Counted from the first letter of the stretch, positions 17,374-48,987 are shown. The stretch is DNA of 64,000 nt from Armatimonadota bacterium (GCA_963677485.1 OY781964.1:4864001-4928000), one strand, 5' to 3'. Numbers and translations are program-made. The notes: generated from the letters alone by a model not told the origin.

Positions 17374-18576
17374 ATGCACTCTCGTAGAATAAATGGGACT
17401 CTCGCATTGCTATTCTTGGTTCAAGGAACCTTGTCGGCGGCCGATTGGCCTCAGTTTAGAGGGCCAAATGCAGACGGGATTTCTGTCGAAAAAGGCATCA
17501 ACAAAACATGGAACCAAAAACCGCCGGTGCAGTTATGGAAGACGGCTATGAGCGATGAAGGGTTTGCGGGCGTATCGGTTGTTAAAGGCGTCGCATATGT
17601 CATCGACCACGCACCTGGGCAGGATGTGGTAAGGGCAATCAATGTGACGACGGGCAAGGATGTCTGGTCCTACCCATATGCCGATACTCAAAAATCCAAC
17701 TTCGGGTATTCCAGAGCCACACCCACCGTCAACGCAAACCGTGTGTATGTACTGGGACGAATGGGCCTGCTGACATGTCTGGACATCAAAAACGGCAAGC
17801 CAATTTGGTCACGCAATATCATGACAGATTTCAACGGCAAGAAGCCAAACTGGAACTATGCCATGTCACCCGTGGTTGATGGGAATAAACTGATCGTTCT
17901 TCCTGGTGGACCAGGTTCTCTCGTGGCAGCACTAGACAAAACAACAGGTAAGACCATATGGCAAGGTGGCGGCACACGTGAGCCAGGTTATGCCACGCCC
18001 ATCATAGCGACCTTCAACGGTAAAAAGCAGTATTTAGTGTTCGCAGCTACTGAGATTGTCGGGGTTGATGCCAGCAATGGTGCAGAGCTATGGGCTCTCC
18101 CATGGGGAAAGCCTTCCGCACACATCCCTGACTTTGTGTTGATCGGTAACTCCTTCTATGTAACCAACAGCTATGGCGAAGGCTGCGCATTGGTAGATGT
18201 CACCGCATCTGGTGCTAAATATCGATGGACAAACAAAGAGATGCAATCGCATATGGCGACACCCATTCTTGTGGGCGGCCTACTGTATGGCACCACCGAT
18301 CCAGGTGACCTGATCTGCATTGACCCGCAGACCGGTGTCACAAAGTGGCGACAAAACGGCTTCGAAAAAGGGCCGCAGATGATGGTGGACGGCGTGCTGC
18401 TGGTATTCAACGGCCACAATGGTGACCTGGTGATGGTCGATCCCAAACCCGATGCCTACCACGAACTCGGTCGGTTCAAGCCACTCGGCGGGCAAAGCTG
18501 GACAATGCCAGTTGTGTCTGACGGTAAGCTGTTTGTACGAAACACCACCGCTCTGGCGTGTTTTAAGCTGAAGTAG
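17374..18576 (+). CDS. Secreted PQQ-like (BamB-like) beta-propeller protein 1
   Basis: Signal peptide, DWPQFRGP, repeated Trp-docking blades (TGKDVW, NGKPIW, TGKTIW, NGAELW, TGVTKW). Confidence 0.85.
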   Translation: MHSRRINGTLALLFLVQGTLSAADWPQFRGPNADGISVEKGINKTWNQKPPVQLWKTAMSDEGFAGVSVVKGVAYVIDHAPGQDVVRAINVTTGKDVWSYPYADTQKSNFGYSRATPTVNANRVYVLGRMGLLTCLDIKNGKPIWSRNIMTDFNGKKPNWNYAMSPVVDGNKLIVLPGGPGSLVAALDKTTGKTIWQGGGTREPGYATPIIATFNGKKQYLVFAATEIVGVDASNGAELWALPWGKPSAHIPDFVLIGNSFYVTNSYGEGCALVDVTASGAKYRWTNKEMQSHMATPILVGGLLYGTTDPGDLICIDPQTGVTKWRQNGFEKGPQMMVDGVLLVFNGHNGDLVMVDPKPDAYHELGRFKPLGGQSWTMPVVSDGKLFVRNTTALACFKLK

Positions 18577-18594
18577 TTCGACTTAAGCTACAGT

Positions 18595-18628
18595 CTGCCC
18601 TGATCGTCTGTTCATGAGATCAGGGCAG
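18595..18628. other. Perfect 11-bp intergenic stem-loop between the tandem propeller genes
   Basis: CTGCCCTGATC ... GATCAGGGCAG. Confidence 0.55.
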
Positions 18629-18659
18629 TGTGATTCTATTTCGAAAGGTGGATTAGCCA

Positions 18660-19862
18660 ATGCGTCTTATCAAATGGTTCGCGCTGATTCTGGCGATACT
18701 CATGCCTGTTGTCGTGCACGCGTCAGATTGGCCCCAGTTCCTTGGCCCTACCGGTAACAGCATATCAACAGAGAAAATCGCCAATAGGAACTGGAATAGA
18801 ACTCCACCTAAGAAGCTCTGGAGTGCAGCCATGAGCGATGATGGTTATGCAGGACCATCTGTGGTTGCAGGAAAAGTGTATATCGTCGACCATATCGGAT
18901 CGGACAATGTGGTACGGGCCATTAACCTTAAAACAGGCAAAGATGACTGGACATATCGATTCCCAGATGCCGAGAAAGCGAACTACGGCTACGTTCGAGC
19001 CACTCCGATAGTCAACACAAGGCGAGTCTACATTCTTGGCCGGTTTGGTGAGATCATCTGTTTGAATTCCGCCAATGGTAAGAAGATATGGGCACGCAAC
19101 TACGCTTCAGAATTCAAAGGTAAGAAACCCACATGGAACTACTCAATGTCGCCTCTCATCGATGGTAACAAAGTGATTCTGTGTGCTGGCGGCGACAACG
19201 CAGCTATGGTCGCACTTGACAAGATGACCGGCAAGGCAATATGGCAAGGTGGAGGCAGTGATCAGGCCAGTTACGCCACCCCTACCGCCGCAGTCATTGG
19301 GGGCGTCCGTCAATATGTCGTGTTCACTGCAGTGAGCATCATCGGAGTAGACGCCGCGAAAGGCAACCTGCTTTGGCGTGTTCCTTGGAAAACCAGTTAC
19401 GACATCAATGGCGCTGCCGCTCAGATAACGGGAAACCGCGTATTTCTCACGAGCGGGTACAACCATGGTAGTATCCTACTGGAAATCAACGGACACACCG
19501 CGAGAACCGTCTGGGAATCCAAAGACATGCAATCGCGGTTCAACTCACCAGTGTTGTTAAGTGGCCACGCTTACGGCATTGGCGAGCCCGGAGAGCTTTC
19601 CTGCATCAACCTTCAGACGGGTAAAGCGACATGGAAACGTGCTGGATTCGAATTCGGAGGGCTGATCGCAGTCGATGGTTTAATACTGGCCATGAACGGC
19701 GGAAGCGGTGAGCTGGTCATGGTGAAGGCATCACCAAACAGCTACCAGGAGCTCGGTAAGTTCACTCCTCTGGGCGGTCAGAGCTGGACGGCTCCGATAC
19801 TGACGAACGACAACCTCATCGTTCGGAACAAAACCACTCTGGCCTGCTTCTCACTGAAGTAG
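18660..19862 (+). CDS. Secreted PQQ-like beta-propeller protein 2 (tandem paralog of protein 1)
   Basis: DWPQFLGP; shared blocks AMSD.G.AG.SVV, NYxMSP, PLGGQSWT, VRN.T.LACF.LK. Confidence 0.85.
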   Translation: MRLIKWFALILAILMPVVVHASDWPQFLGPTGNSISTEKIANRNWNRTPPKKLWSAAMSDDGYAGPSVVAGKVYIVDHIGSDNVVRAINLKTGKDDWTYRFPDAEKANYGYVRATPIVNTRRVYILGRFGEIICLNSANGKKIWARNYASEFKGKKPTWNYSMSPLIDGNKVILCAGGDNAAMVALDKMTGKAIWQGGGSDQASYATPTAAVIGGVRQYVVFTAVSIIGVDAAKGNLLWRVPWKTSYDINGAAAQITGNRVFLTSGYNHGSILLEINGHTARTVWESKDMQSRFNSPVLLSGHAYGIGEPGELSCINLQTGKATWKRAGFEFGGLIAVDGLILAMNGGSGELVMVKASPNSYQELGKFTPLGGQSWTAPILTNDNLIVRNKTTLACFSLK

Positions 19863-21131
19863 CTCTGAGTAGGCTTGAATAGTCTCTGCCGCCATTTTGG
19901 CGGCAGAGAAGTGTTCCCTGATCCCGGCTGCGCCTGAACTACCCATGGCATCGGCACGCTCGGGATTTTCAATAAGCTGGCCGATCGCCGACGCCAGTGA
20001 ACTTACGTCGCCCTGATGATACATCACTCCGCCACCTGTCAGGCCCAACATCTCCGGGAATATCCCCGATTGGGGCACCACTACGGGCACACCCATAGAT
20101 ATAGCCTCCATCACGGCCATTCCGCGTGACTCTGATATTCGGGTGGGCACCGCAAACAGGCTGCACCCTTTGAGAAATTCCAATTTACCGGAAAGACTCA
20201 CCTCACCCAAATGCTGAAATCTTGACGACAAACCCTCTAAGGCCAAACGGCTGGTTAACGCCTTATAGAATTGATGGTCAAGAACCTTGCCTGCCACCCG
20301 CAAGGTGACATCACGGTGTTGTTCTTTCGCGAGCTTTATGAAAGCCTCAGCAAGGATATCCAGACCCTTTGCTCGGTTGATCACAGACAGATAACCGACC
20401 ACTACAGGGTTCTTCGGCCTTTCGATCGTGTTGCGATACGTGCTGGTGTTGATACCCGCATGTATCACCTTGATTTTGCTCCGGTCCACATTCAAGAACT
20501 CACTCATGCTGACGGCATAGTCTCCACCTGGGGCAATGAACAGGTCGATCGATTTCGCATTGGCTTGCATCAGCTCCCTGGCCTTCGACCGATATGGTTC
20601 GGGCATCATGTTCACAAACCCGTCTTCGCCCTGCAATGTGCAGACCACCGGCACCCCAAGCTGCTGTTTAATCTGCACGGCGATGCCTGACAGCATCGAG
20701 TTCGTGATGTTCACCACACCATGCTCTGGGTTCTGCTTCAAGTGATCGATCAACCTCGACAGCTCTTTCCTCTGCTGCCCGTTCTGACCCTCCAGCACAG
20801 ATAAGGTCATTGGTCCCAAATCCTCAGGGCGTGTCTTGATGGAGAATCTGGACGCCCACTTCAGCAGCCGCCGGTTGTCAAACAGACGGTCGAAAGCTCG
20901 CGGGGTGTTCCGAAAGATCGGGGAAAGCTGTTGAAGGAAGACATTGATTCCGCCGTAATAGATAGGAGCGGTGCCCAGCACTGATTCTTCATCGGAATGG
21001 AAAGGGGTGTAGAGCGTGGTCACGCTGACATCGTGCCCAAGTGAGGTCAGCTCGTGGATGAGCGCGACATCACGCGCGCATGCTCCACAATACATATCCC
21101 CTGCCCCCGCCACGATGTATGTGATGCGCAT
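19851..21131 (-). CDS. Glycosyltransferase family 4 with N-terminal YCGAC motif
   Basis: GT-B motifs KGLDILAEAF, ESRGMAVMEAISMGVPVV; N-terminus AGAGDMYCGACARD. Confidence 0.85.
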   Translation of the reverse strand: MRITYIVAGAGDMYCGACARDVALIHELTSLGHDVSVTTLYTPFHSDEESVLGTAPIYYGGINVFLQQLSPIFRNTPRAFDRLFDNRRLLKWASRFSIKTRPEDLGPMTLSVLEGQNGQQRKELSRLIDHLKQNPEHGVVNITNSMLSGIAVQIKQQLGVPVVCTLQGEDGFVNMMPEPYRSKARELMQANAKSIDLFIAPGGDYAVSMSEFLNVDRSKIKVIHAGINTSTYRNTIERPKNPVVVGYLSVINRAKGLDILAEAFIKLAKEQHRDVTLRVAGKVLDHQFYKALTSRLALEGLSSRFQHLGEVSLSGKLEFLKGCSLFAVPTRISESRGMAVMEAISMGVPVVVPQSGIFPEMLGLTGGGVMYHQGDVSSLASAIGQLIENPERADAMGSSGAAGIREHFSAAKMAAETIQAYSELLQ

Positions 21132-21153
21132 GGGTCACCTCGTCATGGTTAGA

Positions 21154-22080
21154 CTAGAATTCCGCAGACAGAGCATGCAGCCGCAAGAGTGAGAGCGACC
21201 CCAGACCGTAATAAGTGTACTCGATGTCGGCTTCGCCATCGCTAGCTGAAGCTCGGAATCCGCCATCCGATGTCAGCAGGCTGCTGATGAAGCGGGCTGT
21301 CTGCGGCAGGTCAAGACGCTCAAGGTCATCCAGACCAGACAAGCAGACCATGCCAGTAAATGTTGACAGTAGATCCGCTTCGTCGATCAAGGGTATAGCC
21401 CGCAACCCTCCGCCTGGTGACTGCATGTTGGCCAGAAATGCGGCGGTCTGTGCAGATTCATCTGCATTGATTGCCCCTAGCAGTGTCAGACAAGCGACAG
21501 CAGCAGCCGTGGCATTTGTCTGACTACATGGCTCACCAGCCGTCTCACAATAACCGCCATCAGACCGTCTGAGCCCATTGAGAGCCCGTATGATGCCGTC
21601 TTTATCGGGTATATCGACATCAAGTATTTCATAACACAGCATAGCGAGAAATGTGTGATAGGCACTGACAACCGTGTCATTCGGCCGGGAGTACCCACCC
21701 CCTGGGAGATGCTGTCCACTTAACACAAGCATGATCTGGTCCAGGTTCAGAGTATATTTCGCTTCATCGGATCCCATCATACGCCAAATATTCAGCACAC
21801 TGAAACACTCAAGGACATCGTTTGGCTGATGGTGCCCAGCGGCAACGAACGGCATGGCCTTAGTTGGTGGAACAGGGTGGTTGTGAACAAGGCGAAGTGT
21901 TCGTAACCCAAAGTCGGTGTAATAGAGGTCGGACCTTCCCTGTCGGCCACAGAACCCGCCATCTGGTGATTGACAAACAGAAACATACTGTGTGATGTGG
22001 TTTCTGAGGGCTTGGCCCAACGATCTGGCACCCGTTTTGAGGGCTCCATCCAGGGCGGCGAGGAACCCTATTGGCATCAC
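21154..22080 (-). CDS. Prenyltransferase/squalene oxidase repeat protein (single alpha/alpha barrel, GGTase beta-like)
   Basis: Repeats QSPDGGF, RRSDGGY, QSPGGGL, TSDGGF with DLYYT, DLLST, DIEYTYY helices. Confidence 0.8.
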   Translation of the reverse strand: MMPIGFLAALDGALKTGARSLGQALRNHITQYVSVCQSPDGGFCGRQGRSDLYYTDFGLRTLRLVHNHPVPPTKAMPFVAAGHHQPNDVLECFSVLNIWRMMGSDEAKYTLNLDQIMLVLSGQHLPGGGYSRPNDTVVSAYHTFLAMLCYEILDVDIPDKDGIIRALNGLRRSDGGYCETAGEPCSQTNATAAAVACLTLLGAINADESAQTAAFLANMQSPGGGLRAIPLIDEADLLSTFTGMVCLSGLDDLERLDLPQTARFISSLLTSDGGFRASASDGEADIEYTYYGLGSLSLLRLHALSAEF

Positions 22081-23786
22081 GAAATACGGCCTGGTAATAC
22101 CAGGCTGATAATAAACCGCATGAGTTCCTGCATCGGTAACGGATCAAAACTGGAAACCAGCTCTTCAGCTTTCGATCGCAGTTTTTGCACCAACCGTTGG
22201 GTTTTATCAAAGACCCCCAGCTCGGTGTAGAGGTTTCGAAGCCGCTCCACCTCCGCAACAGAATCGGAGGCCGCTTCCAGCAGATGCCTCTCCGATTCGG
22301 AACACGCTTGCAGGGCAAAGGCATGCAAGATCGTTGGCCTTTGAGCCAGCACATCTCCGCCTGCCAGCTTACGGTTGGCATTGTCCAGCTGCCAGTCTTC
22401 CAGGTCATTGAGCGCTTGATACCCCTCACCGAGGTAGGTGCAAAACAGCCGGAGCTTCTGATGGTCGATCTCAACCTTTGCGGCACGTAAACCGGCGTAT
22501 AGTGCTACCTCGAGCGCAGGGGCCGTCTTCAGCGAATAGATCGATAGCACATCCATCGGGCTTAGTATCTGCCCGCTCCGGCCTTTCCACATGAGCTCCG
22601 CACCCTGTCCACGGCACAAATCCAAATGGGCGCTGGAAAGACAGCGCAGGATGTCCGCCGTGCACTCTGCACCAAGAGCCGATGCCTCACCAGCCACCAG
22701 GTTGTAACCTAGACCGACCAGGTAGTCACCCACATTGATAGCCGGTGCCACGCCATGCTTTCGATGGATGGTCATCTGACCGTAGCGATAGATGTCATTG
22801 TCCTCGATGTCATCATGCACAAGTGAGGCCTTATGCATCGCCTCGATAGCCATCGCGAGCCGTCGGATTGACATGGGTATGAGCGTGTAGGGATCAATAT
22901 CTGCTTCCAGAGCGTGGCTCCCATGGATGGCGACCGCATACGAAGCCACCGTCAAAAACGGCCTCAGCCGTTTACCACCATGAGTGAACCAGTCCAGTGC
23001 GATCTTCTCGGTCGCATCACGAGGTTCTATTTCTGATCCATCGGGCAAGAACTGTGCAATACTAGACGGCAGCGCTTCTCTTAACCCCGCCATATCAAAA
23101 ATACCCATCGTCTCACGCAACAAATGCACATAGGTGCGCGGAGGCGACACCGTTTGCTTGGATGACATGCGGAGTATCGAGCGCAACTCGCCTAGTTCGG
23201 TGGTCGTGTTGACGCATCCATCTTGCAGCAGCGGGACGGCCATGTAGGGGATACCAATATCGGATATTCGTGAATACGACTTCTCCAGCGAATCCAGGCA
23301 GGCCACTCCAAGCAAGGCATCCGTGCCACCCTCGAGAACCTTCATGATGACCGCCGTGGTGCCCTCTGAGATGATGACCTCATAACCGAGCCGTTCGGCT
23401 TCTGACTTCAATCCGCCGATATCACACGCATCGCATTGCCTGCACATCAGATTGGAGGCGTCGAGTTCGGCCGTGCATTCCGCATGGTTGCTCATGCAGT
23501 GTGGCAGCAGCAGCAACCTGCGGTGGAATGGCACCGTCTCGAAATACCTGCGCCAATATATGTTGCTTATGGCCACCATCGTATATCCCAGGTAGACTTC
23601 AGACAGCGAAAGCTTTTTTAACAATGATGCAGCCATTGATTTTAGCTCTTCTTGAGACGGGTAACGATCAGTCACGAACTCCGCGGCCTGATCCTCAGCT
23701 AAGCTGCGAATCGAAGCCCTGACCGATTTATCCTGGGGTACCTGTTTGATATCACTGGTTAGGTGTTCACGCGCTGCTGACATCAT
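22077..23786 (-). CDS. Polyprenyl diphosphate synthase fused to a Cys-rich DUF116 domain
   Basis: GGKRLRP, FARM LVHDDIED..YRYG, GQ, KTA, second motif NDLED; N-terminal LLLPHC...C...CRQCDAC...GVAC. Confidence 0.85.
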   Translation of the reverse strand: MMSAAREHLTSDIKQVPQDKSVRASIRSLAEDQAAEFVTDRYPSQEELKSMAASLLKKLSLSEVYLGYTMVAISNIYWRRYFETVPFHRRLLLLPHCMSNHAECTAELDASNLMCRQCDACDIGGLKSEAERLGYEVIISEGTTAVIMKVLEGGTDALLGVACLDSLEKSYSRISDIGIPYMAVPLLQDGCVNTTTELGELRSILRMSSKQTVSPPRTYVHLLRETMGIFDMAGLREALPSSIAQFLPDGSEIEPRDATEKIALDWFTHGGKRLRPFLTVASYAVAIHGSHALEADIDPYTLIPMSIRRLAMAIEAMHKASLVHDDIEDNDIYRYGQMTIHRKHGVAPAINVGDYLVGLGYNLVAGEASALGAECTADILRCLSSAHLDLCRGQGAELMWKGRSGQILSPMDVLSIYSLKTAPALEVALYAGLRAAKVEIDHQKLRLFCTYLGEGYQALNDLEDWQLDNANRKLAGGDVLAQRPTILHAFALQACSESERHLLEAASDSVAEVERLRNLYTELGVFDKTQRLVQKLRSKAEELVSSFDPLPMQELMRFIISLVLPGRIS

Positions 23787-25536
23787 CACCAATCCTGCTA
23801 ATGGGGTTCTGGAGAGCACTAAGCGAGCCTAACGCTTCTACCGTCCAGATGACCGGATACAGACGTTCAGAATACCAGAGACTGGAAAAATACAACCCGA
23901 TAGGCGAAGCTTCGGTCCAACTGCCATCTTCAACCCGTGTGATCAGATGTTCGCCGCCAGATTTGATGACCTCACTCACACCGGGCCGTGAGGAAAACTG
24001 GCATAAAGCTGATAGCACAGTCGCCGTCTCCTCGACAGAAGAGCGTATGCCGGGAGCCCCACCCCATCCACCGTCAGAATTTTGGGCAGCCACCAAGTAT
24101 TTTACACCTTTACCCGACTCCATATGACTGGTATGCGACCCCGCATAGGCTAGAAGCGTCCTGGCGGTGCCATATACGGGGTTGTGACCGGTTTCAGTAG
24201 CTTGGTTACCAAACCACAATGGGATCCAGGAACCATCCTCGTTCTGCGTCCGATGCAGATACGCATATCCATTTGCAATGGCCGCCTTCAATGGCTGATC
24301 TGTTGAATGCTGCCCAAAAGCGTGAAGCGCACGCAGCGTATGTGATGTGATATCAGGCGAGCTCTTGTCGAATGGCAACTGCCCCCAGCCCCGACAGAAA
24401 GCCGGCCAGCCGCCGTCTGAGTTCTGCAGGCCGCGCAGCCAGCTCACTCCCTTGGCAGCCGCATCAGATTGGTTCAGCCCCAATAGGGCCAAAACCGCGC
24501 CTGATGTATCATCGGCATCAGGCACACCACCCGGATGATGCGTCCAAGGAAATCCCCCAGGACTTGCACCGGTGAAGGGGTGCTTTGCCTGTTGTTGCTG
24601 GTGGCCTATCCATTGGGCTGTATGCGAGACATCAAGCCGGCTCAAACTCTCCGCCCGGTCAAGAGCAGCCACAGCGCCTGTGGTCAGCCACACCGATAGG
24701 TCGGTATCGATCGGCCAACTGCCATCATCGCGTTGGGATGCACTGATGAACTCCAGGCATTTACTCACCGCGGGGTGCCGGGCACCACGAACTGAACCCA
24801 AACTCATCGCCACGAAGCCTGTCAACGGTGTCGCCTCTAGAAATCCGCCGTTCACGGGCTGGATTTTCGCTAGTATAGCTAGAGCGGCGGGCATCACCGC
24901 CTGACGGATATATCTGCTCATCGCCGACTTTGGTGGGTTTCGGTGAAACAAAGTGATACCGATGGCTATCAAGGCAGGTAAAGCGTAACTGACCACATGA
25001 AGCCGTAGAAATCGAAATAGGCTCTGAGGGAACACCGCCAACTCAAACGGCAGCGAAGGCACACTGCTCCATGGCACCATTCCCGCCAACGCGCAGTTCA
25101 TCAAGATTGGCACCGCAAAAGTGCGGTCCTCACCGTAGATATTTGTGACGGCTTTCACAATTTCATCCGGTGTGGACCCCGCGTGTGCTTCGATGTAGGT
25201 GTTCGCATTCGCAGATGCAGCAAGATGGTCTTGTTTGGATAGTTTGAGTGCGGCGATGACCAGCAATGTGGTCGAAAGATTGCTGGGGCTGGTTGAGGTG
25301 TCACCCCAGCCGCCATCGGAGTTTTGGGTCTGAGCGAGCCACTCCACACCCGTAGCTATACGGTTCGCGTGGGCTTCTAGCTCAGATACCGCCATCGCAC
25401 TGACCGCAATGGCCGTGGAGAGTGCCGAGGAGGAGAGCTCACCCTTCCAGTAGCCTTCAGGCTGCATCTCGTTTAGAAGATACTCTACGGCCTGGTGTGT
25501 GGCTTGGGCCAGCCTCTCGTGATTGATATCGCTCAA
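23767..25536 (-). CDS. Squalene-hopene-cyclase-like class II terpene cyclase
   Basis: Catalytic PDADDT; QW repeats QNSDGGW (x3), QRDDGSW, QNEDGSW; W.GEL N-terminus; VYGT; TTG start coupled to the upstream TGA. Confidence 0.85.
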   Translation of the reverse strand: MSDINHERLAQATHQAVEYLLNEMQPEGYWKGELSSSALSTAIAVSAMAVSELEAHANRIATGVEWLAQTQNSDGGWGDTSTSPSNLSTTLLVIAALKLSKQDHLAASANANTYIEAHAGSTPDEIVKAVTNIYGEDRTFAVPILMNCALAGMVPWSSVPSLPFELAVFPQSLFRFLRLHVVSYALPALIAIGITLFHRNPPKSAMSRYIRQAVMPAALAILAKIQPVNGGFLEATPLTGFVAMSLGSVRGARHPAVSKCLEFISASQRDDGSWPIDTDLSVWLTTGAVAALDRAESLSRLDVSHTAQWIGHQQQQAKHPFTGASPGGFPWTHHPGGVPDADDTSGAVLALLGLNQSDAAAKGVSWLRGLQNSDGGWPAFCRGWGQLPFDKSSPDITSHTLRALHAFGQHSTDQPLKAAIANGYAYLHRTQNEDGSWIPLWFGNQATETGHNPVYGTARTLLAYAGSHTSHMESGKGVKYLVAAQNSDGGWGGAPGIRSSVEETATVLSALCQFSSRPGVSEVIKSGGEHLITRVEDGSWTEASPIGLYFSSLWYSERLYPVIWTVEALGSLSALQNPISRIGDDVSSA

Positions 25537-27044: not shown

Positions 27045-27048
27045 TAAT

Positions 27049-27915: not shown

Positions 27916-27990
27916 GATCTCATCCTGCGGGCTTTCTTTGGTCATGTGTGTGAAGAAGCTCGTGTTGTTTGTTGGGATTTCCTGGTGTTC

Positions 27991-28019
27991 TTGACATGGG
28001 TATTCGTCCAGTCTATTAT
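27991..28019 (+). promoter_or_regulatory. Sigma70-type promoter for the right-arm operon
   Basis: TTGACA-N17-TATTAT, about 100 bp upstream of ATG 28118. Confidence 0.65.
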
Positions 28020-28117
28020 AACATCGGGGGAGCATTATTGTACAGAGTATCAACACACGCAGCTAGTAAACGTATTACCCTCATTTCCCTTCAACGCGAA
28101 AGGCATGATTCCCGCAA

Positions 28118-29593: not shown

Positions 29594-29628
29594 GCTATCT
29601 GTCATCACCACCGAGGGAGAATATAGAC

Positions 29629-30875: not shown

Positions 30876-30890
30876 CTTGAGCATTTAGTA

Positions 30891-37094: not shown

Positions 37095-37096
37095 CA

Positions 37097-38695
37097 ATGC
37101 CCGTATTATCTATCGACGGCCGTACGGTTCATGTTGCGCCGGGATCTACGATCCTCGACGCCGCGACCGCCGCTGGCATCAAGATTCCAACGATGTGCTT
37201 CCTGAAGGATCTTCCCGCCCAGACATCTTGTCTCGTCTGCGTGGTCAGAGTCAATGGCTCACCGCGGCTGGTGCCTTCCTGTGCCACCCTCGCAACGGAT
37301 GGCATGGTGGTGGACAGCAGCAGCGAGGATGTCGTCACAGCGCGCAGAACGGCCTTGGAGTTGCTGCTTGGCAACCACCTGGGCGACTGTGTCGGCCCGT
37401 GTCAAACAGCCTGCCCTGCCCATATGGATATACCCTCTATGATCGCCCAAATCGCTGCGGGCGACTACAGGCGGGCGATCATCACGATCAAGCAGCATAT
37501 TGCACTGCCTGCCGTTTTGGGCAGGATTTGCCCTGAGCTGTGCGAGCGGAGCTGTCACCGTGCGACACATGATTCGCCATTGTCGATCTGCCGGCTCAAG
37601 CGGTTTGCCGCGGATGTTGATCTGGCATCACCCCAGCCTTATCTACCGGATTGTGTTCCACCCTCTGGTAAACGGGTGGCGATCATCGGTGCCGGCCCGA
37701 CAGGGCTTGCTGCGGCTTATTATCTGCTGCAGATGGGACATCAATGCGTCATCTTCGATGAACACGAACAGCCTGGGGGGATGCTTCGGTACGGTGTCAC
37801 TCCAGACCGGTTGCCCCACAATATACTTGATGCCGAAATTGGGCTGATCCTTCAGCTTGGAGCCGAACTACATACCAACTACTGCTGCGATGATGCTCAG
37901 TGCCTGGATGAGCTCAGCTCTCAACACGATGCTGTTCTGCTGGCCTGCGGCAAGCTGGACGGAGAGAAAATGGCCCGTCTGGGACTGAAGGCCACCGCGA
38001 ACGGTATTCAGGTAGACCGACTGACGATGATGAGCTCAAAACCTGGGGTGTTTGCCGCGGGCTCGGTAGTCACGCCCTCGCAGTACGCGGTGCGAGCGGT
38101 GGCGAAAGGCCGATCTGCAGCTATTGCCATTGACCATTATCTGAACGGATATGCCTCGGATGCTGACCATGCGCCGTTCTCAGTTCATATGGGACACCTG
38201 CAGGAAAGCGAAATTGCCATCATGATGGAGGGTACCAGCGTATCCAGTCGCGTAGCTCCGCAGGGTGATGGTTTCACCGAGAACGAGGCCGTGACCGAGG
38301 CTAGTCGGTGTATGCGCTGCGAATGCGGAAAGCTGCATGGATGCAAGCTCCGCGACTACAGCATTGAACTGAAGGCCTCCCCCACGCGGTTCAAAGGCGC
38401 TCGCGAGCTGCTGCGCCGTTTTCAGAACCATCCCTTCGTTATTTACGAGTCTGGTAAATGCATCACGTGTGGATTGTGTATCGAGCTCTGCCAGAAATCC
38501 GCTGAGCCCATAGGATTGGCCTTCATGGGACGTGGTTTCGATGTCAAGCCTGGTATCCCATTCAATGAGCCATTCGCTCAAGCATTGGAAGCGGTCGCAG
38601 TTGAGTGTGTGAACGCCTGCCCCACCGGTGCGCTGGTGATGAAGAAGACAAAGAGCCAATCGGCCCCTGAGGAGATACAGCATGAGCCAATCTGA
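37097..38695 (+). CDS. [2Fe-2S]/GltD-like FAD/Fe-S oxidoreductase (StnC/NfnABC large-subunit-like) lacking the NADP(H) domain
   Basis: IPTMC...SCLVC...SC; PCQTACP, GRICP.LCE.SC; GAGPTG; GGMLRYG; GVFAAGS; RCMRCEC; CITCGLCIELC...CPTGAL. Confidence 0.8.
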   Translation: MPVLSIDGRTVHVAPGSTILDAATAAGIKIPTMCFLKDLPAQTSCLVCVVRVNGSPRLVPSCATLATDGMVVDSSSEDVVTARRTALELLLGNHLGDCVGPCQTACPAHMDIPSMIAQIAAGDYRRAIITIKQHIALPAVLGRICPELCERSCHRATHDSPLSICRLKRFAADVDLASPQPYLPDCVPPSGKRVAIIGAGPTGLAAAYYLLQMGHQCVIFDEHEQPGGMLRYGVTPDRLPHNILDAEIGLILQLGAELHTNYCCDDAQCLDELSSQHDAVLLACGKLDGEKMARLGLKATANGIQVDRLTMMSSKPGVFAAGSVVTPSQYAVRAVAKGRSAAIAIDHYLNGYASDADHAPFSVHMGHLQESEIAIMMEGTSVSSRVAPQGDGFTENEAVTEASRCMRCECGKLHGCKLRDYSIELKASPTRFKGARELLRRFQNHPFVIYESGKCITCGLCIELCQKSAEPIGLAFMGRGFDVKPGIPFNEPFAQALEAVAVECVNACPTGALVMKKTKSQSAPEEIQHEPI

Positions 38696-39395
38696 AGGAC
38701 GGCTGATACTGTCCAATATCACGAAGAACTACACGTCGGAGCAGGGCACTACGCCGATTTTGAAGGATATCTTCGTCAATGTAGAGCCTGGAGAGACTCT
38801 GGCTATCATAGGGCCTTCAGGCTCGGGCAAAAGCACGCTGTTGAACATCATTGGTTCCCTGGATAAGCCGACATCTGGAACTGTCATGATAGATACGACC
38901 GATGTCACAGCTCTGGAAGGCGATGCATTGGCGTCTTTTCGAGCCAAACAGGTTGGTTTTGTGTTCCAGGAGCACCATCTGCTGCCGCAATTGACCGCCG
39001 TTGAAAATGTGATGCTGCCCTCCATACCGGCTGGGTGTGATACCACGGCCTTGAAAGTCGCCCAGTCGCTACTGGAGCGGGTCGGTGTATCGCACCGGGC
39101 GGAGGCCTTCCCTGCCCAGATGTCAGGCGGCGAACGCCAGCGGACCGTGGTCGCACGCGCCTTGGTGAACGGAGCACGGCTGCTGCTCTGCGATGAACCG
39201 ACCGGCAGTCTGGACCGTGATTCCGGTGCGAACATCATCGCATTGCTGCTGGAATTGGCGGAGACACAAAGCGTGACGGTCATCATTGTCACGCATAACC
39301 TCGAACACGCACAGAGGTTCCACAGGTGTATGAAACTGGTGGACGGCCAACTGGTAGACTACGACCCGCACACGGGCCACGGAGCGGTTCTGTGA
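38682..39395 (+). CDS. ABC exporter ATP-binding protein (LolD/MacB-like)
   Basis: GPSGSGKST, GFVFQ.HHLLP, MSGGERQR, CDEPTGSLD, VTH. Confidence 0.92.
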   Translation: MSQSEGRLILSNITKNYTSEQGTTPILKDIFVNVEPGETLAIIGPSGSGKSTLLNIIGSLDKPTSGTVMIDTTDVTALEGDALASFRAKQVGFVFQEHHLLPQLTAVENVMLPSIPAGCDTTALKVAQSLLERVGVSHRAEAFPAQMSGGERQRTVVARALVNGARLLLCDEPTGSLDRDSGANIIALLLELAETQSVTVIIVTHNLEHAQRFHRCMKLVDGQLVDYDPHTGHGAVL

Positions 39396-42300
39396 CACTG
39401 CGACAGCTCATACTTCGCAGCCTTCGCTATTACCTGCGCACCAACGCGGTGGTTGTTTTCGGGCTGGCGATCACCTCTGCTGTGATCATCGGTTCGCTCA
39501 TGATCGGTGATTCCATCAAAGGTAGCCTGCTGAATACCGCCACATCGAGGCTGGGCAGCATCGACTATGCCCTCAGTTCCCAGAGGTTATTTCGTTCTGA
39601 TTTGTCTAAGGATTTGCCCCAAAGCTCCACACTTAAGGGTAGAGTTAAACACATCTCCTCCGCCCTCTTAATCAAGGCCACCGTCGAGAACACAGACACC
39701 GAGCTGGCCTTACCAAATGTCAGCGTCGTGGGCATCGATGAGTCATTCACCAAGCTCTTCCCCAACCAGGCAGTACCGACACCGACGGGCCGTCAAGCGG
39801 TCATCAACACGGCACTGGCTGATGAACTGGGGGTCAAGGCCGGTGATAGCATCATCCTCAACCTGGACAAGCAAAGTGCGATACCTTCAGGGACCCTCTT
39901 TTCGCACCAGTTGCCTGATGACACGCAGGCCACGCTACGGCTGGAGGTATCGGCTGTGGTCGGTGATCAGGGCTTTGGTGGGTTCCGGCTTGATAATTCC
40001 GTGGAGGTTCCCCGTAATATCTTCGTATCGGCGGACTGGCTAGCATCGGAGATCGGAAAGCAGGGCATGGCGAACACTCTACTGGTTCAACAAGAGACGT
40101 CCAGTGAAGATATTGTCTCGATATTGCAAACCTCACTCCGATCTGCTTGTAGTATCGAAGATCACGGCCTCAAGATGGCCAACAACAAGCTACAATCCAC
40201 TCTCTCCCTCCAAAGTGATTCTCTGGTCTTCAGCGATCGTCAACTTGAGGCTGCACAAGCGGCCATCACCCAATGCCGATTCAGAGGGAACCTAACCTCC
40301 ATCTACCTCGCGACAGAAATCCGAAACATCAGCCGAAATGGCGCCTCGATATCCTACGCTATCGTCTCAGGATTAAAACCGAGTGTTCCGTTCAGTTTTG
40401 CCTCAGGCGGATCGGCGGAGCCCGAATCAGCCGGCATTTGGTTGAACTCCTGGGCCGCCCAGGACCTTAAGACGCGCGTTGGCGACATACTTGAGCTCAG
40501 CTATCTCGTACCCATGAAAGACGGCAGTTATCACAGCTTCAAACTTCAACGGACTCTCACGGGCATTGTGAACATCACCGGCCCTGCCGCTGATAAAGGG
40601 CTTGTGCCCGACTTTGAAGGCATGACCAACACCAAGAGCATAGAAGACTGGAAAACACCTTTCCCCGTCGATCTTCGCAGCGTCACGGAACGCGACGACT
40701 TGTATTGGGCGAAATACAGCACCACGCCAAAGGCTTATGTGAATCTGTCCACCACGAAGCTCATGTGGTCAGCCGCATCCACTGACAACGGATGGATCAC
40801 TTCGATACGCATCCCTTATCGTGCAGGGACAGATCCGACTGTTGTGAAGGCCATGCTGGAGCGTGCGATTTTAGCCAATCTGCTTCCTGAAGAATCGGGA
40901 CTCGTGTTTCGTCCTGTCCGCCGACTTGCTGTGGAATCAGCTCAGGGTAACACCGACTTCGGCCAACTATTCCTGGTGATGAGCTCTTTTATCATCATAG
41001 CTGGCGCGAGTCTGGCAGCCACCCTGCTTAAGCTCTCCAGTGAGCGTAGAGCCGCCGAAATCGGCACCATGCTGGTGTGCGGCTTCAGACCAGCGACCAC
41101 CATGCAGGTGTTGCTGGGTGAAGGCTCAATACTGGCCTTGGCAGGAGCGTTGCTGGGTCTGCCGTTGGGCATCCTGTATGCCTGGGGCGTGGTCTCCGCA
41201 TTGAAACTATGGTGGACGACAGCCGTAGGCACTTCCTTCTTGTCGATCAGCATTAACCCGGTAAGCCTGTTGGTCGGCATCGTCTCAGCTTTAGGCGTAG
41301 GCCTATTGGCGGTCTGGTTGGCGGTTCGACGCCTCAGAGATATGCAAGTCCTACAGTTAATCTCTGGGTGGCAAAGCCTCGGTACCCATCAAAACCACAG
41401 CTCGCAGAGACGCAGCCTGATAGCTCTGGCGGTCTGCGTCATCTTAACTCTAGTGCTACTGGCGGTCTCCATGTCAGTAGCGGTGAAGTCAGCCGAAGCG
41501 CTGCTGTTTTGCACGGGTGCCGTGATGCTAATCGGGTCGATTGCCGGTGTGAATGTGGTTCTGATCCGGCTGATGCATCGGAGGTTCTCCATTCCCTCGA
41601 TAGGCAAACTGGCATTACGAAGCATGTCTGCCAATCGCGGCCGCAGTTTGTTGATAGTAGGGTTGATGGCTGCCGCGGCCTTTACGATCATCACTGTCGC
41701 TGCCAGCACACGCGACTTTTCCCGCATGGATTATGCGGATCGCAACTCCGGAACGGGTGGATTTGCACTCAAAGCGGTCGCGACACAGCCGATCGCATAT
41801 GACCTGAATAGCCCGAAGACGCGGGCCGATCTGGGGTTTACTCCAGAAGATGAACGCAGCTTGAAAGGGGTTCAGTTTGTCTCATTTCTGGCAAATCAAG
41901 GTGATGACATTAGCTGCTTGAATCCAGCCAAGGTGGCTCAGCCCAGAGTGCTGGGTGTGAGTCCACAGATGATCTCCCGTGGCGGATTTGGAGCTAAGGC
42001 AGATGGCGGAAACAGTCCCTGGCGATCGCTGAATTCCACGAATTTGGACTTCGAGTGGATCCCTGTGATCGGTGATGCCGATACGGTGATATGGAACATT
42101 CATTCCGGACTTGACCAAACCACGAGCCTGCAGGGCAGTGGCGGCGATACGCATAAAGCCCGGTTTACGGCCTTGCTGCCCAGAAGCATATTCGCCAGCG
42201 AACTGCTCATATCTGAGCACTGGTTCAGGAAACTATTTCCGGAGGTACACGATCCACGATATTTCCTGGTGGATGTGCCTTCCGCGAACGTGAAGGCAGT

Positions 42301-42772
42301 GACTGAGGTTCTACGCCGCAACCTGGGAAGGCTGGGGTTTGACATCAAAAGCACTCAACAAGTGCTGAACAGCTATATGGGTGTGCAAAACACCTACCTG
42401 TCGATGTTTCTGGCATTAGGCGGCCTCGGAATGGTGCTGGGCACTGTCGGCCTGGTGATCGTGTTGCTCAGGAGTGCTTTGGAACGCCAAAAGGAGTTCG
42501 CTTTGATGCTGACTCAGGGCTTCAAGCGGTCAGATATAGTGAGGTTGCTTCTGATCGAAAACATATGGCTGCTGCTGACAGGCTTGGTCATAGGCACTTT
42601 ATCGGCTCTGGTGTCGGTTATACCGGCACTGACCGGCATCGAATCGGTGGTCAACTGGCCGGCGATCGGTGTGATCTTTACCTGTATTCTGACCACCGGT
42701 GTGGTCTGCTGTGTTCTGGCAGCCAGACAGGCCGTCGGCGGAATTCTCATTGAAGTGCTTCACGGAGAGTAA
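39392..42772 (+). CDS. Large duplicated FtsX/MacB-type ABC permease
   Basis: GTG start overlapping the ATPase stop; two large extracytoplasmic domains; ERRAAEIG and ERQKEFAL FtsX motifs. Confidence 0.85.
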   Translation: MTLRQLILRSLRYYLRTNAVVVFGLAITSAVIIGSLMIGDSIKGSLLNTATSRLGSIDYALSSQRLFRSDLSKDLPQSSTLKGRVKHISSALLIKATVENTDTELALPNVSVVGIDESFTKLFPNQAVPTPTGRQAVINTALADELGVKAGDSIILNLDKQSAIPSGTLFSHQLPDDTQATLRLEVSAVVGDQGFGGFRLDNSVEVPRNIFVSADWLASEIGKQGMANTLLVQQETSSEDIVSILQTSLRSACSIEDHGLKMANNKLQSTLSLQSDSLVFSDRQLEAAQAAITQCRFRGNLTSIYLATEIRNISRNGASISYAIVSGLKPSVPFSFASGGSAEPESAGIWLNSWAAQDLKTRVGDILELSYLVPMKDGSYHSFKLQRTLTGIVNITGPAADKGLVPDFEGMTNTKSIEDWKTPFPVDLRSVTERDDLYWAKYSTTPKAYVNLSTTKLMWSAASTDNGWITSIRIPYRAGTDPTVVKAMLERAILANLLPEESGLVFRPVRRLAVESAQGNTDFGQLFLVMSSFIIIAGASLAATLLKLSSERRAAEIGTMLVCGFRPATTMQVLLGEGSILALAGALLGLPLGILYAWGVVSALKLWWTTAVGTSFLSISINPVSLLVGIVSALGVGLLAVWLAVRRLRDMQVLQLISGWQSLGTHQNHSSQRRSLIALAVCVILTLVLLAVSMSVAVKSAEALLFCTGAVMLIGSIAGVNVVLIRLMHRRFSIPSIGKLALRSMSANRGRSLLIVGLMAAAAFTIITVAASTRDFSRMDYADRNSGTGGFALKAVATQPIAYDLNSPKTRADLGFTPEDERSLKGVQFVSFLANQGDDISCLNPAKVAQPRVLGVSPQMISRGGFGAKADGGNSPWRSLNSTNLDFEWIPVIGDADTVIWNIHSGLDQTTSLQGSGGDTHKARFTALLPRSIFASELLISEHWFRKLFPEVHDPRYFLVDVPSANVKAVTEVLRRNLGRLGFDIKSTQQVLNSYMGVQNTYLSMFLALGGLGMVLGTVGLVIVLLRSALERQKEFALMLTQGFKRSDIVRLLLIENIWLLLTGLVIGTLSALVSVIPALTGIESVVNWPAIGVIFTCILTTGVVCCVLAARQAVGGILIEVLHGE

Positions 42773-42774
42773 TT

Positions 42775-43881
42775 ATGAAAAATAAGACGATGTATGCTTT
42801 GGTCGCGGCCCTGTTCGCTTTGACAATCCCCGTGCTGGCACAGACATCCGATGACTGGGCGAGTTTCCGCGGCGGTGCAGCGATGACAGGCGTCGCGAAA
42901 TCATCTTTGCCCGCGAAGCCCCGGCGGCTTTGGACATATGAGGCGAAGGCCATCGTGGAATCAACGGCCGCCATCGTGGGTAACTCCACGTATGTAGGCA
43001 CACTGAAGGGAAAACTTCTGGCCATCAATATGACCACCGGCAAATTGCAGTGGAAGTTTACAGCGAAGGATTCCATCAGTGCCTCACCCTGTGTGGCAGG
43101 CAACTATGTGTATTTTGGGGATAAGAACGGCATCTTCTACGCTGTCAATCGATCCAGTGGAAAGATGGCCTGGAAGTATACCACCAAAGATAAGATCATC
43201 TCCTCCGCCATAGTTTCGAATGGGATGGTGCTGTTTGGATCGTATGACTACTACCTGTACTGCTTGAATGCGAAAACGGGAAAGCTGATTTGGAAATTTA
43301 AAGCAGGAGCACAGGTCCACTGCTCGCCATGTGTCGCTGATGGGTTGGTGATGATCGCCGGTTGCGATGGCGATATCCGAAGCATCGACATCAACACCGG
43401 CAAGGAAAAGTCCAAGGCGCATGTCGACACCAACTTCTCCGCTGCCACCGCTTTTCAGTCTGGCGTGGTATACACCGGCGCGATCATCGGTGAGTATTTG
43501 GCGGTGCGAGTCAGCGACGGCAAGATACTTTGGAGTCATAAAGAAAAAACTGGAGACGGTATCTACGCGAGTGCGGCAGTGTCTGCAGATGGAGTGGTCT
43601 TCGCCTCGCGCAGCAAACGCATCTTCCGAGTGGATCCGGCCACCGGAAAGACCATCTGGACATTCAACAGCCGGAGCGGAGTCGATTCCTCACCGGTGAT
43701 CGCAGGCAATACCGTCTATATCGGCTCAGATGGTGGTGAGTTAGTTGGGTTAAGTCTGGCCAGCGGCCAGAAAACATGGGGTTTCAAAGCTGGGGCTGAG
43801 ATTGTAGCCTCTCCGGCCATCTCGCGTGGGAAGATGGTGATTGGCACCGGCGATGGTGCCATCTACTGCTTTGGGAAGTAG
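42775..43881 (+). CDS. Secreted PQQ-like/BamB-like beta-propeller protein 5
   Basis: Signal peptide, DWASFRGG, regular blades (TGKLQWKF, SGKMAWKY, TGKLIWKF, TGKTIWTF). Confidence 0.85.
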   Translation: MKNKTMYALVAALFALTIPVLAQTSDDWASFRGGAAMTGVAKSSLPAKPRRLWTYEAKAIVESTAAIVGNSTYVGTLKGKLLAINMTTGKLQWKFTAKDSISASPCVAGNYVYFGDKNGIFYAVNRSSGKMAWKYTTKDKIISSAIVSNGMVLFGSYDYYLYCLNAKTGKLIWKFKAGAQVHCSPCVADGLVMIAGCDGDIRSIDINTGKEKSKAHVDTNFSAATAFQSGVVYTGAIIGEYLAVRVSDGKILWSHKEKTGDGIYASAAVSADGVVFASRSKRIFRVDPATGKTIWTFNSRSGVDSSPVIAGNTVYIGSDGGELVGLSLASGQKTWGFKAGAEIVASPAISRGKMVIGTGDGAIYCFGK

Positions 43882-46802: not shown

Positions 46803-46864
46803 TGCAGTATTCCTCATCTGGAAATCACCGACTAGCACCGTGTTGGCCGATCCGGTGGTAATAC

Positions 46865-46905: not shown

Positions 46906-46945
46906 ATATATGTGCCACACGGCTGGCGGATTCCTGAAGGTTAGC

Positions 46946-48955: not shown

Positions 48956-48987
48956 ACCATTTCTCCTGTAATTTGCGTGTAGATGGT

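Follow-up and report, generated by a model that had tools for sequence, protein, structure and literature searches.

A composite locus in an Armatimonadota genome places an SHC-like terpenoid pathway beside a predicted redox arm and exporter

Does a block of genes in which a terpenoid pathway, a chain of iron-sulfur proteins and an exporter lie side by side encode one system, or several that happen to be neighbours? The question is raised by positions 17374..43881 of a 64,000-nt stretch (the window) of the genome of an Armatimonadota bacterium (GCA_963677485.1, OY781964.1:4864001-4928000), a 26.5-kb block of twenty genes. The host genome is closed, on one contig of 5.22 Mb, and is 97% complete. 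The block has two divergent arms, which we divide into three modules. M1, the left arm, comprises a ferredoxin (Fdx), a class-B-like radical S-adenosylmethionine (SAM) enzyme, a cyclase of the squalene-hopene cyclase-like (SHC-like) type, a fusion of DUF116 with a prenyl synthase, an alpha/alpha-toroid protein (PTfold) and a GT4 glycosyltransferase. M2, the redox part of the right arm, comprises the propeller PQQc, an NHL propeller, a four-cysteine (Cys4) mini-protein, a ferredoxin exported by twin-arginine translocation (Tat), a NapH-like protein, the propeller PQQd, a NuoEF fusion and a StnC-like protein. M3, the exporter with its soluble propellers, comprises a LolD-like ATPase, a double-FtsX permease and the secreted propellers PQQe, PQQa and PQQb. 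Domain calls come from Pfam and NCBIfam scans of the open reading frames (ORFs) of the window, judged against curated cut-offs, and they reproduce each fold that an earlier, sequence-only reading had assigned in the left and right arms. Our answer, held with moderate confidence, is that the block combines three modules which are each conserved in their own right and function jointly, and that an M1 of the radical SAM type built like this one depends on M2.

Co-occurrence of the modules

We searched 301 genomes, drawn evenly across the phylum Armatimonadota, for the cyclase (E <= 1e-60) and the NapH-like protein (E <= 1e-40); here and in the other genome comparisons, absence means no match with the given query at the given threshold. 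The cyclase is found in 41/301 genomes and the NapH-like gene in 56/301, with 33 genomes carrying both, 8 the cyclase only, 23 the NapH-like gene only and 237 neither (odds ratio 42, Fisher p ~1e-21, uncorrected for kinship). In 17 of the 33 double carriers the two genes sit on one contig, on opposite strands and less than 10 kb apart, and in the other 16 they sit on separate contigs of fragmented metagenome-assembled genomes (MAGs). The same single genome holds both genes in each of three families where they are rare (1/17, 1/5 and 1/15). The sequence-only reading had staked its case on the two arms occurring together across genomes, and they do so, with adjacency in several phyla.

This adjacency was followed in two further scans, one that found 273 relatives of the cyclase, of which the best 80 were kept as loci, and one with the NapH-like query that found 17 loci. 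Neighbouring genes were called from six-frame ORFs by best BLASTP match (E <= 1e-8, coverage > 0.3), a procedure by which paralogous propellers may be mislabelled. Right-arm genes directly follow the cyclase, in the same direction, in three Kiritimatiellota loci (L053, L065, L078) and in a Bacteroidota-labelled isolate (L076), and they also lie beside the cyclase in L001 and L031. As the arms adjoin each other in both divergent and co-directional layouts, the neighbourhood has been kept through rearrangement. Outside Armatimonadota, 11/16 genomes with a right arm carry the cyclase elsewhere in the genome. Cultured carriers are Pontiella sulfatireligans, with M1 and M2 (L053), and Thalassoglobus neptunius, with M1 only in the stretch examined (L007).

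The link between M1 and M2 is asymmetric, as M1 of the class-B-like radical SAM type is almost always accompanied by M2, and M2 is often alone. The class-B-like radical SAM gene occurs in 34/301 Armatimonadota genomes, all 34 of which have the cyclase and 32 the NapH-like gene. One of the two exceptions shows PQQc, NHL and Tat ferredoxin genes at a contig end (L104), which brings the genomes with evidence of M2 to 33/34, and in the other (L103) the contig begins at the ferredoxin. Among cyclase genomes of the same sample that lack this radical SAM gene, only 1/7 has a NapH-like gene. Across phyla, 12/13 loci with the class-B-like enzyme belong to genomes with a NapH-like gene (8/8 in Planctomycetota) versus 17/67 loci without it, and the sole cross-phylum exception is a MAG that is also an exception in the Armatimonadota sample. 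For the cyclase in general the figure is 29 of 80 genomes (18/50 + 11/30). Furthermore, in two genomes of one genus (L100-L102) the radical SAM and ferredoxin genes lie divergently beside M2 and the cyclase is on another contig. A search of 15 ORFs around right arms without a cyclase, using Pfam, returned no recurrent substitute partner.

It is possible, if unlikely, that the modules are independent, with M1 making a membrane-stiffening lipid, M2 and M3 serving unrelated redox and export functions, and all of them kept as neighbours by co-inheritance, co-transfer or a common regulator. Each module does occur alone in many genomes, and within the genus the block is one presence/absence unit, so that hitch-hiking is possible. 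A same-genus genome (L081) has the full block in synteny, at 66–92% protein identity, which, together with the recurrence of the arms in many genomes, indicates that the arrangement is not due to chance. Another genome of the genus has neither the cyclase nor the NapH-like gene and lacks exactly 17.2–43.9 kb; its homology ends at the 3' ends of the flanking YchF and SpoIIE phosphatase genes, and the 26.5 kb therefore behave as a single unit. Three observations argue against mere co-inheritance: the arms adjoin each other in at least three phyla and in two layouts, divergent and co-directional; the radical SAM type and M2 track each other nearly perfectly in Armatimonadota and Planctomycetota, even when they are not adjacent; and the block ends bear no marks of a mobile element, as no tRNA and no terminal direct or inverted repeats were found there. 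Moreover, M1, M2 and M3 pair in all combinations, as would be expected if they acted on a common object.

In a same-genus closed genome (G001, with loci L081 and L098), YchF lies ~135 kb from the block, whereas here it abuts it, and the right flank (HydS-like) is shared. The left boundary of the block is thus a rearrangement point.

The redox arm

The gene order of M2 is constant in 17/17 loci (propeller, NHL, mini-protein where present, Tat ferredoxin, NapH-like, propeller, NuoEF, StnC-like), often with LolD and FtsX genes after the StnC-like gene, and the MAGs concerned carry the labels Planctomycetota, Verrucomicrobiota, Armatimonadota and Bacteroidia. PQQc is the first gene of this order in 14/17 loci, and PQQd follows the NapH-like gene in 15/17.

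The cytoplasmic head of M2 resembles the StnABC/NfnABC enzymes. Residues 186–790 of the NuoEF fusion match the StnB/NfnB/HydB chains 9bov_B, 8oh5_B and 9n5u_B of the PDB with E values of 1e-224 to 1e-213, that is, ~1e-220 over 600 residues. The StnC-like protein carries a 2Fe-2S domain, a 4Fe-4S domain, a GltD-type NAD(P)H/FAD domain and a C-terminal Fe-S domain, and matches 9bov_A, 8oh5_C and 9n5u_A (1e-105 to 1e-101) over query residues 15–324 only. The subunit set of StnABC/NfnABC is therefore present, with NuoE-like, NuoF-like and GltD-like proteins bearing Fe-S domains; a full-length third subunit is not, as the StnC-like protein has 543 amino acids (aa) against 963–1178 in the PDB chains and lacks their large, formate-dehydrogenase-like C-terminal part. 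The head is thus a cut-down module of the Bfu type. It differs from the known enzymes in two further respects: NuoE and NuoF are fused, and its genes stand among those for membrane and periplasmic Fe-S proteins, whereas the known enzymes are soluble. NfnABC couples NADPH oxidation to the reduction of ferredoxin and NAD, according to a published abstract.

The membrane part of M2 recalls NapGH and the related NosGH and MauMN, with which it shares a Tat ferredoxin of ~16 Cys adjoining a membrane protein with Fer4_5 and CX3CP. The NapH-like protein has two additional C-terminal helices and a further 4Fe-4S motif, and its CX3CP and CxxCxxCxxxCP motifs are conserved; it scores 51.3 bits against the NapH/MauN family TIGR02163 (cut-off 213) and 48.4 against PRK09477 (cut-off 234), far below the cut-offs for NapH. 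The cluster has no NosZ-type partner, and Pfam finds no NapA/NapB-type molybdopterin partner in it, a statement about the cluster, as Nap was not searched genome-wide. The apparent donor is a cytoplasmic NAD(P)H flavoprotein instead of quinol, and the apparent acceptors are PQQ-like and NHL propellers.

The Tat ferredoxin is 47–70% identical across right-arm loci. The mini-protein has a Tat-like leader, SRSEFLK, followed by C-x5-C-x2-C-x5-C...LPQA, and orthologues with an SRRxFL leader and the same Cys motif occur in L001, L081, L094, L095 and L106, with further orthologues in L100 and L102. The NHL protein keeps a vicinal Cys pair (GCCNP) in at least 90% of 16 homologues, and an atlas search with it returned only clusters of unnamed NHL proteins.

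The best match to the BamB equivalog is PQQe with 177 bits (cut-off 285), propeller scores for the PQQ alcohol dehydrogenase family reach at most 81 bits (cut-off 480), and every BamB and PQQ-dehydrogenase score of PQQa in NCBIfam is far under its cut-off. CxxCH is found in 0 of the block's 20 proteins, and none of the block proteins matches a molybdopterin, NiFe or cytochrome family in Pfam or NCBIfam, in agreement with the earlier view that a terminal catalytic subunit cannot be recognised in the right arm. No characterised counterpart exists for the parts of M2 in the membrane and periplasm, and a literature search for a redox system of this type returned nothing relevant. The sequence-only reading took the whole for a candidate undescribed system; the head maps to Stn/NfnABC, and the clade of the cyclase is already in print. 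Of the right arm only the cytoplasmic M2 head maps to a known complex, and the companion possibility, that the left arm yields ordinary hopanoids, is discussed below.

If power instead flowed inward, the bifurcating head would bring the left-arm ferredoxin to the very low potential that the cluster of the radical SAM enzyme requires (and cob(I)alamin, if B12 is used), the other branch would run downhill to a periplasmic acceptor through the NapH/NapG-like proteins, and M2 would be a power supply, not a user of the lipid. We give this a rather small probability. The head is nearest to bifurcating StnABC/NfnABC, and the tightest link across the arms is that of radical SAM and ferredoxin with M2 (the 33/34 and 12/13 given above), a pair that stays by M2 when the cyclase is elsewhere. 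In addition, a gene for a RACo-like corrinoid activator adjoins one right arm (L091). Radical SAM enzymes are, however, normally fed by a housekeeping ferredoxin or flavodoxin, and left arms with a SPASM-type radical SAM enzyme mostly lack M2, given the NapH-like gene in only 17/67 loci without the class-B-like enzyme. Cobalamin binding is only a candidate property of the modelled enzyme, and inward flow leaves six extracytoplasmic propellers and the exporter unexplained.

The RACo-type gene, for a reductive activator of corrinoid proteins, lies at L091:5783-7504, a short way upstream of NHL in a right arm from Verrucomicrobiota, and could matter if the linked radical SAM enzyme uses cobalamin.

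The sequence-only reading had also offered the exported product as a non-quinone lipophilic electron carrier or cofactor that the propellers would require, an idea to which we now attach very little weight. No subunit of M2 can be recognised as quinone-reactive or as a terminal catalyst, and M1 and M2 are linked, as such a role would suggest. M2 nevertheless occurs without the SHC-like cyclase in 23/56 carriers in Armatimonadota and 5/16 in other phyla; it therefore does not need the terpenoid, which argues against an obligatory cofactor or carrier. A check proposed with that reading was whether carriers lack men, mqn and ubi pathways. The host genome encodes two proteins of the MqnA/D family, the gene for one of which adjoins that of a UbiA prenyltransferase, as well as cytochrome bd, and it gave no match to MenB, so that we expect a menaquinone pool from the futalosine pathway. 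As a matter of general chemistry, a saturated or cyclised polyprenoid would also have no obvious redox-active group.

The terpenoid arm

The cyclase is the sole SHC-family gene of the host genome. Its DADDT motif aligns with DVDDT of the Alicyclobacillus acidocaldarius SHC (1gsz), the catalytic DxDD is intact, and VPDaDDT is kept in 76 homologues. It nevertheless scores 123.7 bits against the hopene-cyclase equivalog TIGR01507 (cut-off 431.1), and squalene/phytoene synthase (PF00494, the family of HpnCD and Sqs) has no match in the host genome, in a search whose control was positive in 8/14 reference genomes. Relatives of the cyclase, among the best 80 of 273, are found in Planctomycetota (including a Gemmata MAG), Verrucomicrobiota, Kiritimatiellota, Bacteroidota and Acidobacteriota.

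These features are reminiscent of a large cyclase clade in the literature, variously called 'SHC-like' or of 'unknown function', that is found in the Planctomycetota-Verrucomicrobiota-Chlamydiota (PVC) and Fibrobacterota-Chlorobiota-Bacteroidota (FCB) groups, Spirochaetota and Acidobacteriota (Santana-Molina et al. 2020, PMC7306690; Mol Biol Evol 2025, PMC12414744). In the accessible text of these papers the clade is placed outside SHC and named the main unexplained branch of the triterpenoid-cyclase family, and its genomic context is said to indicate a precursor other than squalene (PMC7306690, PMC12414744). The block cyclase, at 603 aa, is within the 550–700 aa range that the 2025 study uses (PMC12414744), keeps DxDD, comes from overlapping phyla and has a non-squalene context. 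From its length, the taxa of its relatives, its catalytic residues and this context, we infer that it belongs to the clade. What differs is that the same accessible text gives no product and does not mention the radical SAM and ferredoxin genes, the DUF116 fusion, the exporter or the redox arm, though figure S10 of PMC7306690 may draw some of them. We found no later literature on SHC-like cyclases. As far as these sources go, the left arm is uncharacterised but not undescribed, since the clade and its non-squalene context are already in print.

The arm has a prenyl synthase of its own. Its first aspartate-rich motif (FARM), HKASL(V/I)HDDI(E/Q)D, is present in 64/65 homologues, and the second, (N/D)DLxD, has N in 38 and D in 27 of the 65; every NCBIfam equivalog is below its cut-off. 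As a general rule, small residues at -5/-4 of the first motif, here Ala-Ser, would go with medium or long products. The DUF116 half has seven invariant Cys, and its AlphaFold2 (AF2) model (predicted local distance difference test score, pLDDT, 88) shows a generic Rossmann/flavodoxin-like fold. A sequence search of the PDB found no match for it and Foldseek none at E <= 1e-3, and the best VIA-align Z of 6.0 is again to generic folds of that kind. A literature search for DUF116 together with a cyclase returned nothing relevant.

With an intact DxDD, a prenyl synthase with an invariant FARM and no SQS_PSY gene, the arm is most consistent with a product that is cyclised and polyprenyl-derived but different from ordinary hopanoids, much as first proposed. 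That it makes ordinary hopanoids is scarcely credible: the cyclase does match SHC families and keep DxDD, but hopanoids from squalene are very unlikely because the host has no PF00494 gene and the hopene-cyclase score is below its cut-off, the arm has a dedicated head-to-tail prenyl synthase, and the literature, in its accessible text, sets the clade outside SHC (PMC7306690, PMC12414744).

PTfold is nearest by sequence to the beta subunit of protein farnesyltransferase (FTase; PDB, 2.5e-11). Across 35 homologues not one Cys or His position is kept, so that an FTase-type zinc site is not evident, and Pfam finds no gene for a protein prenyltransferase alpha subunit in the cluster. PTfold is not a zinc prenyltransferase, and it may instead serve in lipid binding or presentation. 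A complex prediction of the cyclase with the toroid protein, with alignments of 26 rows for each and without controls, scored 0.00 in two runs, which speaks neither for nor against a contact.

The CX3CX2C motif of the radical SAM enzyme is invariant in 15 sequences. The protein matches the B12-binding radical SAM family TIGR04013 at 9.9e-26 (90.5 bits, cut-off 251) and does not match the Pfam B12-binding family. Its AF2 model (pLDDT 89) has an N-terminal Rossmann-type domain and a SAM core; Foldseek ranks MgmA best (5e-16), followed by TsrM, AprD4, MiaB/RimO, CysS, OxsB and TokK, and the non-B12 enzymes MiaB/RimO and AprD4 fit about as well as those that use B12. Cobalamin use is thus plausible, judging from the model. 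MgmA, TsrM, MiaB/RimO, CysS, OxsB and TokK transfer methyl or methylthio groups to unactivated carbon.

Clustering of the best 80 loci places the DUF116 synthase next to the cyclase in 65 of them, an Fdx in 44 and a toroid protein in 35, and a recurrent cassette runs Fdx, radical SAM, DUF116 synthase, toroid protein, cyclase. The eight-Cys core of the ferredoxin is conserved in the 44 loci. The radical SAM enzyme of the cassette is either of the class-B-like type or of a SPASM/AhbD-like type (~413 aa). A GT4 gene recurs next to the cyclase or the exporter genes (L005, L011, L039, L042, L095, L104, L106). In some phyla, genes for IscS, a GcvH-like protein and a CobW-like GTPase precede the cassette, and this prefix occurs with the SPASM/AhbD-like enzyme in Acidobacteriota-type and other loci (L020, L035, L038, L046, L057, L070, L075, L107). 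Cyclase loci of Planctomycetaceae recurrently carry genes for a HemN-like radical SAM enzyme and a geranylgeranyl-reductase-like flavoprotein.

The exporter

The ATPase scores 229.5 bits against the LolD equivalog (cut-off 307.75) and the permease 32.4 bits against LolCE (cut-off 362), with ADOP/MacB likewise far below cut-off. A PTfold-LolD(-FtsX) arrangement adjoins cyclase clusters in 7/80 loci, with LolD identities of 45–51%, and in the Planctomycetaceae loci L014, L042 and L047 homologues of the FtsX permease come after PTfold-LolD. Four of the seven genomes have no NapH-like match. An exporter of the MacB/Lol type thus stands beside the cyclase even in genomes without the redox arm, which fits the earlier proposal that it moves the M1 product out, as far as analogy can indicate.

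The likeness to the LolCDE/MacB type VII exporters lies in the LolD-like ATPase (229 bits) and the FtsX permease domains. The permease of the block differs in being a single protein of 1148 aa with two FtsX domains, below every equivalog cut-off, and the block has BamB-like propellers as neighbours instead of an adjacent LolA/LolB or MacA.

Hopanoid biosynthesis combines SHC with the class B radical SAM methylases HpnP and HpnR and the exporter HpnN. Like the block as we read it, that pathway joins a class II cyclase to tailoring by radical SAM enzymes, a glycosyl step and an export route of its own to the outer membrane. The block differs in having a head-to-tail prenyl synthase and no squalene synthase, in the MacB/Lol type of its exporter, where that of hopanoids is of the RND type, and in its electron-export chain, which hopanoid clusters lack. 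The accessible part of a review of lipid radical SAM enzymes contains no cluster of this kind.

A proposed mode of working

From folds, motifs, gene order, conservation, co-occurrence and the lack of a squalene synthase, we can propose chemical steps, a direction of electron flow, export and coupling for the composite. M1 would build a polycyclic isoprenoid lipid from a regular medium- or long-chain polyprenyl diphosphate, supplied by its own synthase, and not from squalene. Tailoring of this lipid, most likely by C-methylation or methylthiolation, would fall to the radical SAM enzyme, with the dedicated ferredoxin as its reductant, and GT4 would probably add a sugar. By analogy with LolCDE/MacB, M3 would extract the lipid from the inner membrane toward the periplasm or outer membrane. 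M2 would be a quinone-independent electron-export chain, in which a head of the Stn/NfnABC type oxidises NAD(P)H. The electrons would cross by way of the NapH-like membrane polyferredoxin, go on to the Tat-exported NapG-like ferredoxin and the Cys4 mini-protein, and then reach the anchored propellers. Of these, the NHL protein is the strongest candidate for a reactive site, in view of its invariant vicinal Cys-Cys. In genomes without M1, M2 would have a function of its own. Where M1 has the class-B-like radical SAM enzyme, the exported or tailored lipid may be one substrate or a working partner of the periplasmic propeller assembly, and the dependence of M1 on M2 could take either of two forms: propellers that act on the lipid, or a Bfu-type head that feeds low-potential electrons to Fdx and radical SAM.

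Several points weigh against such a composite. Related genomes are not independent, which is why the Fisher p of ~1e-21 is overstated, and the co-occurrence counts carry no correction for phylogeny. Most comparison genomes are MAGs, so that part of the absences are false. M2 occurs without the cyclase in the 23/56 and 5/16 carriers noted above and 51/80 cyclase genomes have no detected NapH-like gene, so neither module strictly needs the other. Adjacency could come from shared regulation under one stress instead of shared chemistry, and we found no physical or expression link between the modules, which also speaks for their independence; of eight sequencing runs from four studies that contain window 24000-32000 or part of it, five of them with at least half of its words, none is recorded as RNA. 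Finally, the block proteins offer no recognisable terminal reaction, and the chain length, read from Ala-Ser at -5/-4 of the FARM, leans on a general rule.

A stronger version of the composite is doubtful. It would make the block one envelope-spanning machine of an undescribed kind, in which a methylated, glycosylated polycyclic polyprenoid, made anaerobically, is exported by the MacB-type pump, passed to the periplasmic propellers as a scaffold and then reduced at the vicinal-Cys site of the NHL protein by low-potential electrons derived from bifurcation of NAD(P)H and wired through the NapH/NapG-like proteins. If true, lipid maturation in the periplasm powered by NAD(P)H would be described for the first time, and orphan polycyclic biomarkers of anoxic settings would have a source.

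Gene map and control region

The ORF map (Table 1) bears out the two compact operons of the sequence-only reading around a divergent gap of ~200 bp, as well as the two additional propeller genes that converge on the left end. Within each arm, neighbouring genes either overlap or lie no more than 35 nt apart. The likely start of the ferredoxin gene sets the left edge of the gap. Besides its core, the ferredoxin has a poorly conserved N-terminal domain and a Cys-rich tail. PQQa and PQQb converge on the GT4 end of the left arm and are linked by a 76-nt direct repeat (72% identity, spacing 1283); homologues of PQQa converge on the end of the left arm in L028, L103 and L095. The signal peptide of PQQe has no lipobox cysteine.

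Table 1 Features of the block, in window coordinates
Feature	Position	Strand	Evidence
PQQa, secreted PQQ_2/BamB-like beta-propeller	17374..18576 (ORF opens 17287; 17374 is the likely signal-peptide start)	+	Pfam PQQ_2 1.1e-42
PQQb, secreted PQQ_2-like propeller, tandem paralogue of PQQa	18660..19862	+	Pfam PQQ_2 8.6e-32
GT4 glycosyltransferase	19851..21131	-	Glycos_transf_1 7e-25, Glyco_transf_4 1.1e-10; all NCBIfam families below cut-off
PTfold, single alpha/alpha-toroid protein	21154..22080	-	Pfam Prenyltrans 4.4e-23
DUF116 + trans-polyprenyl diphosphate synthase fusion	22077..23819	-	DUF116 2e-32, polyprenyl_synt 9.5e-39 (133.5 bits)
'SHC-like' class II terpenoid cyclase, 603 aa	23767..25578	-	SQHop_cyclase_C 2.2e-37, SQHop_cyclase_N 1.1e-24
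Class-B-like radical SAM	25533..27083 (ORF reaches 27194)	-	Radical_SAM 9.5e-9
Ferredoxin, 2x[4Fe-4S]	27049..27915 (ORF to 28056; likely start 27915)	-	Fer4_10 and related families
Divergent control region, ~200 bp	27916..28117	between arms	Opposed promoter-like sites
PQQc, membrane-anchored periplasmic PQQ_2-like propeller	28118..29593	+	PQQ_2 4.1e-24; N-terminal hydrophobic anchor and low-complexity linker
NHL six-blade propeller, N-terminal anchor	29629..30657	+	NHL 8.5e-15
Cys4 mini-protein, 73 aa	30654..30875	+	ORF; no Pfam match
Tat-exported NapG-like polyferredoxin, 17 Cys	30891..31442	+	RRDLIK leader; Fer4 families
NapH-like membrane polyferredoxin	31442..32740	+	Fer4_5 4e-14
PQQd, propeller on long N-terminal membrane/linker region	32737..34719	+	PQQ_2 1.6e-22
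NuoE-NuoF fusion, Bfu-type NAD(H) flavoprotein	34719..37094	+	2Fe-2S_thioredx 6.8e-53, Complex1_51K 1e-45, NADH_4Fe-4S 8.6e-35, C-terminal 2x Fer4
Truncated StnC/NfnA-like subunit, GltD-type, 543 aa	37064..38695	+	Fer2_4, Fer4_20, Pyr_redox_2
LolD/MacB-type ABC ATPase	38682..39395	+	ABC_tran 7.6e-35
Double-FtsX permease, 1148 aa, large extracytoplasmic regions	39326..42772	+	FtsX 1.8e-20, two stretches
PQQe, secreted eight-blade BamB/ACSF4-like propeller	42775..43881	+	Beta-prop_ACSF4 4.7e-66, above cut-off

The gap holds a promoter-like site on each strand, TTGACA-17-TATTAT on the + strand (27991-28019) and TGTACA-18-TATAAT on the - strand (28044-28015), where 0.9 sites are expected by chance, and the -10 boxes of the opposite strands overlap. 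A 34-nt core with both -10 boxes is identical in a same-genus genome, and the whole aligned stretch is 79% identical. A Rex operator was sought in the divergent region and none was found; the closest match, with 1 mismatch to the general consensus, lies at 25143-25160, inside the cyclase ORF. Rex-like palindromes are within chance, as 13/100 shuffles reach the observed number of matches at <= 3 mismatches.

Genomic surroundings

A complete [FeFe]-hydrogenase island adjoins the block (window 43900-57402), with genes for a SpoIIE phosphatase, a HydS-like sensory hydrogenase, HydA with NuoF-like and NuoE-like partners, Rex, HydE, HydG, an aspartase-family lyase and HydF. With its Rex and maturases, the island indicates that the host is an anaerobic fermenter. 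In another Armatimonadota genome, a HydS-like and SpoIIE pair is convergent on the cyclase gene (L101:4766-7963). Farther out on the left, on the - strand (5690-7548), an AAA_21 ATPase and a DUF4276 protein match the PADLOC candidate defence pair HEC-01A/HEC-01B with 471 and 205 bits. At the right end (57907-64000) the GC content is 0.37–0.38, compared with ~0.54 before, and genes for an acyltransferase_3 protein, a GT4 protein, a 2-hydroxyacid dehydrogenase, an HpcH aldolase and a Bac_transf sugar transferase make this probably a horizontally acquired surface-glycan cluster.

Implications

We propose that the redox arm is a widespread, quinone-free route by which cytochrome-poor anaerobes send NAD(P)H electrons across the inner membrane. 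The block unites this route with the terpenoid pathway and the exporter in a closed genome, and the dependency we expect is that a pathway of the radical SAM type needs the redox arm and not the reverse. Once known, the substrate of the SHC-like cyclases would constrain the pre-oxygen evolution of polycyclic lipids, and it could assign orphan sedimentary biomarkers.

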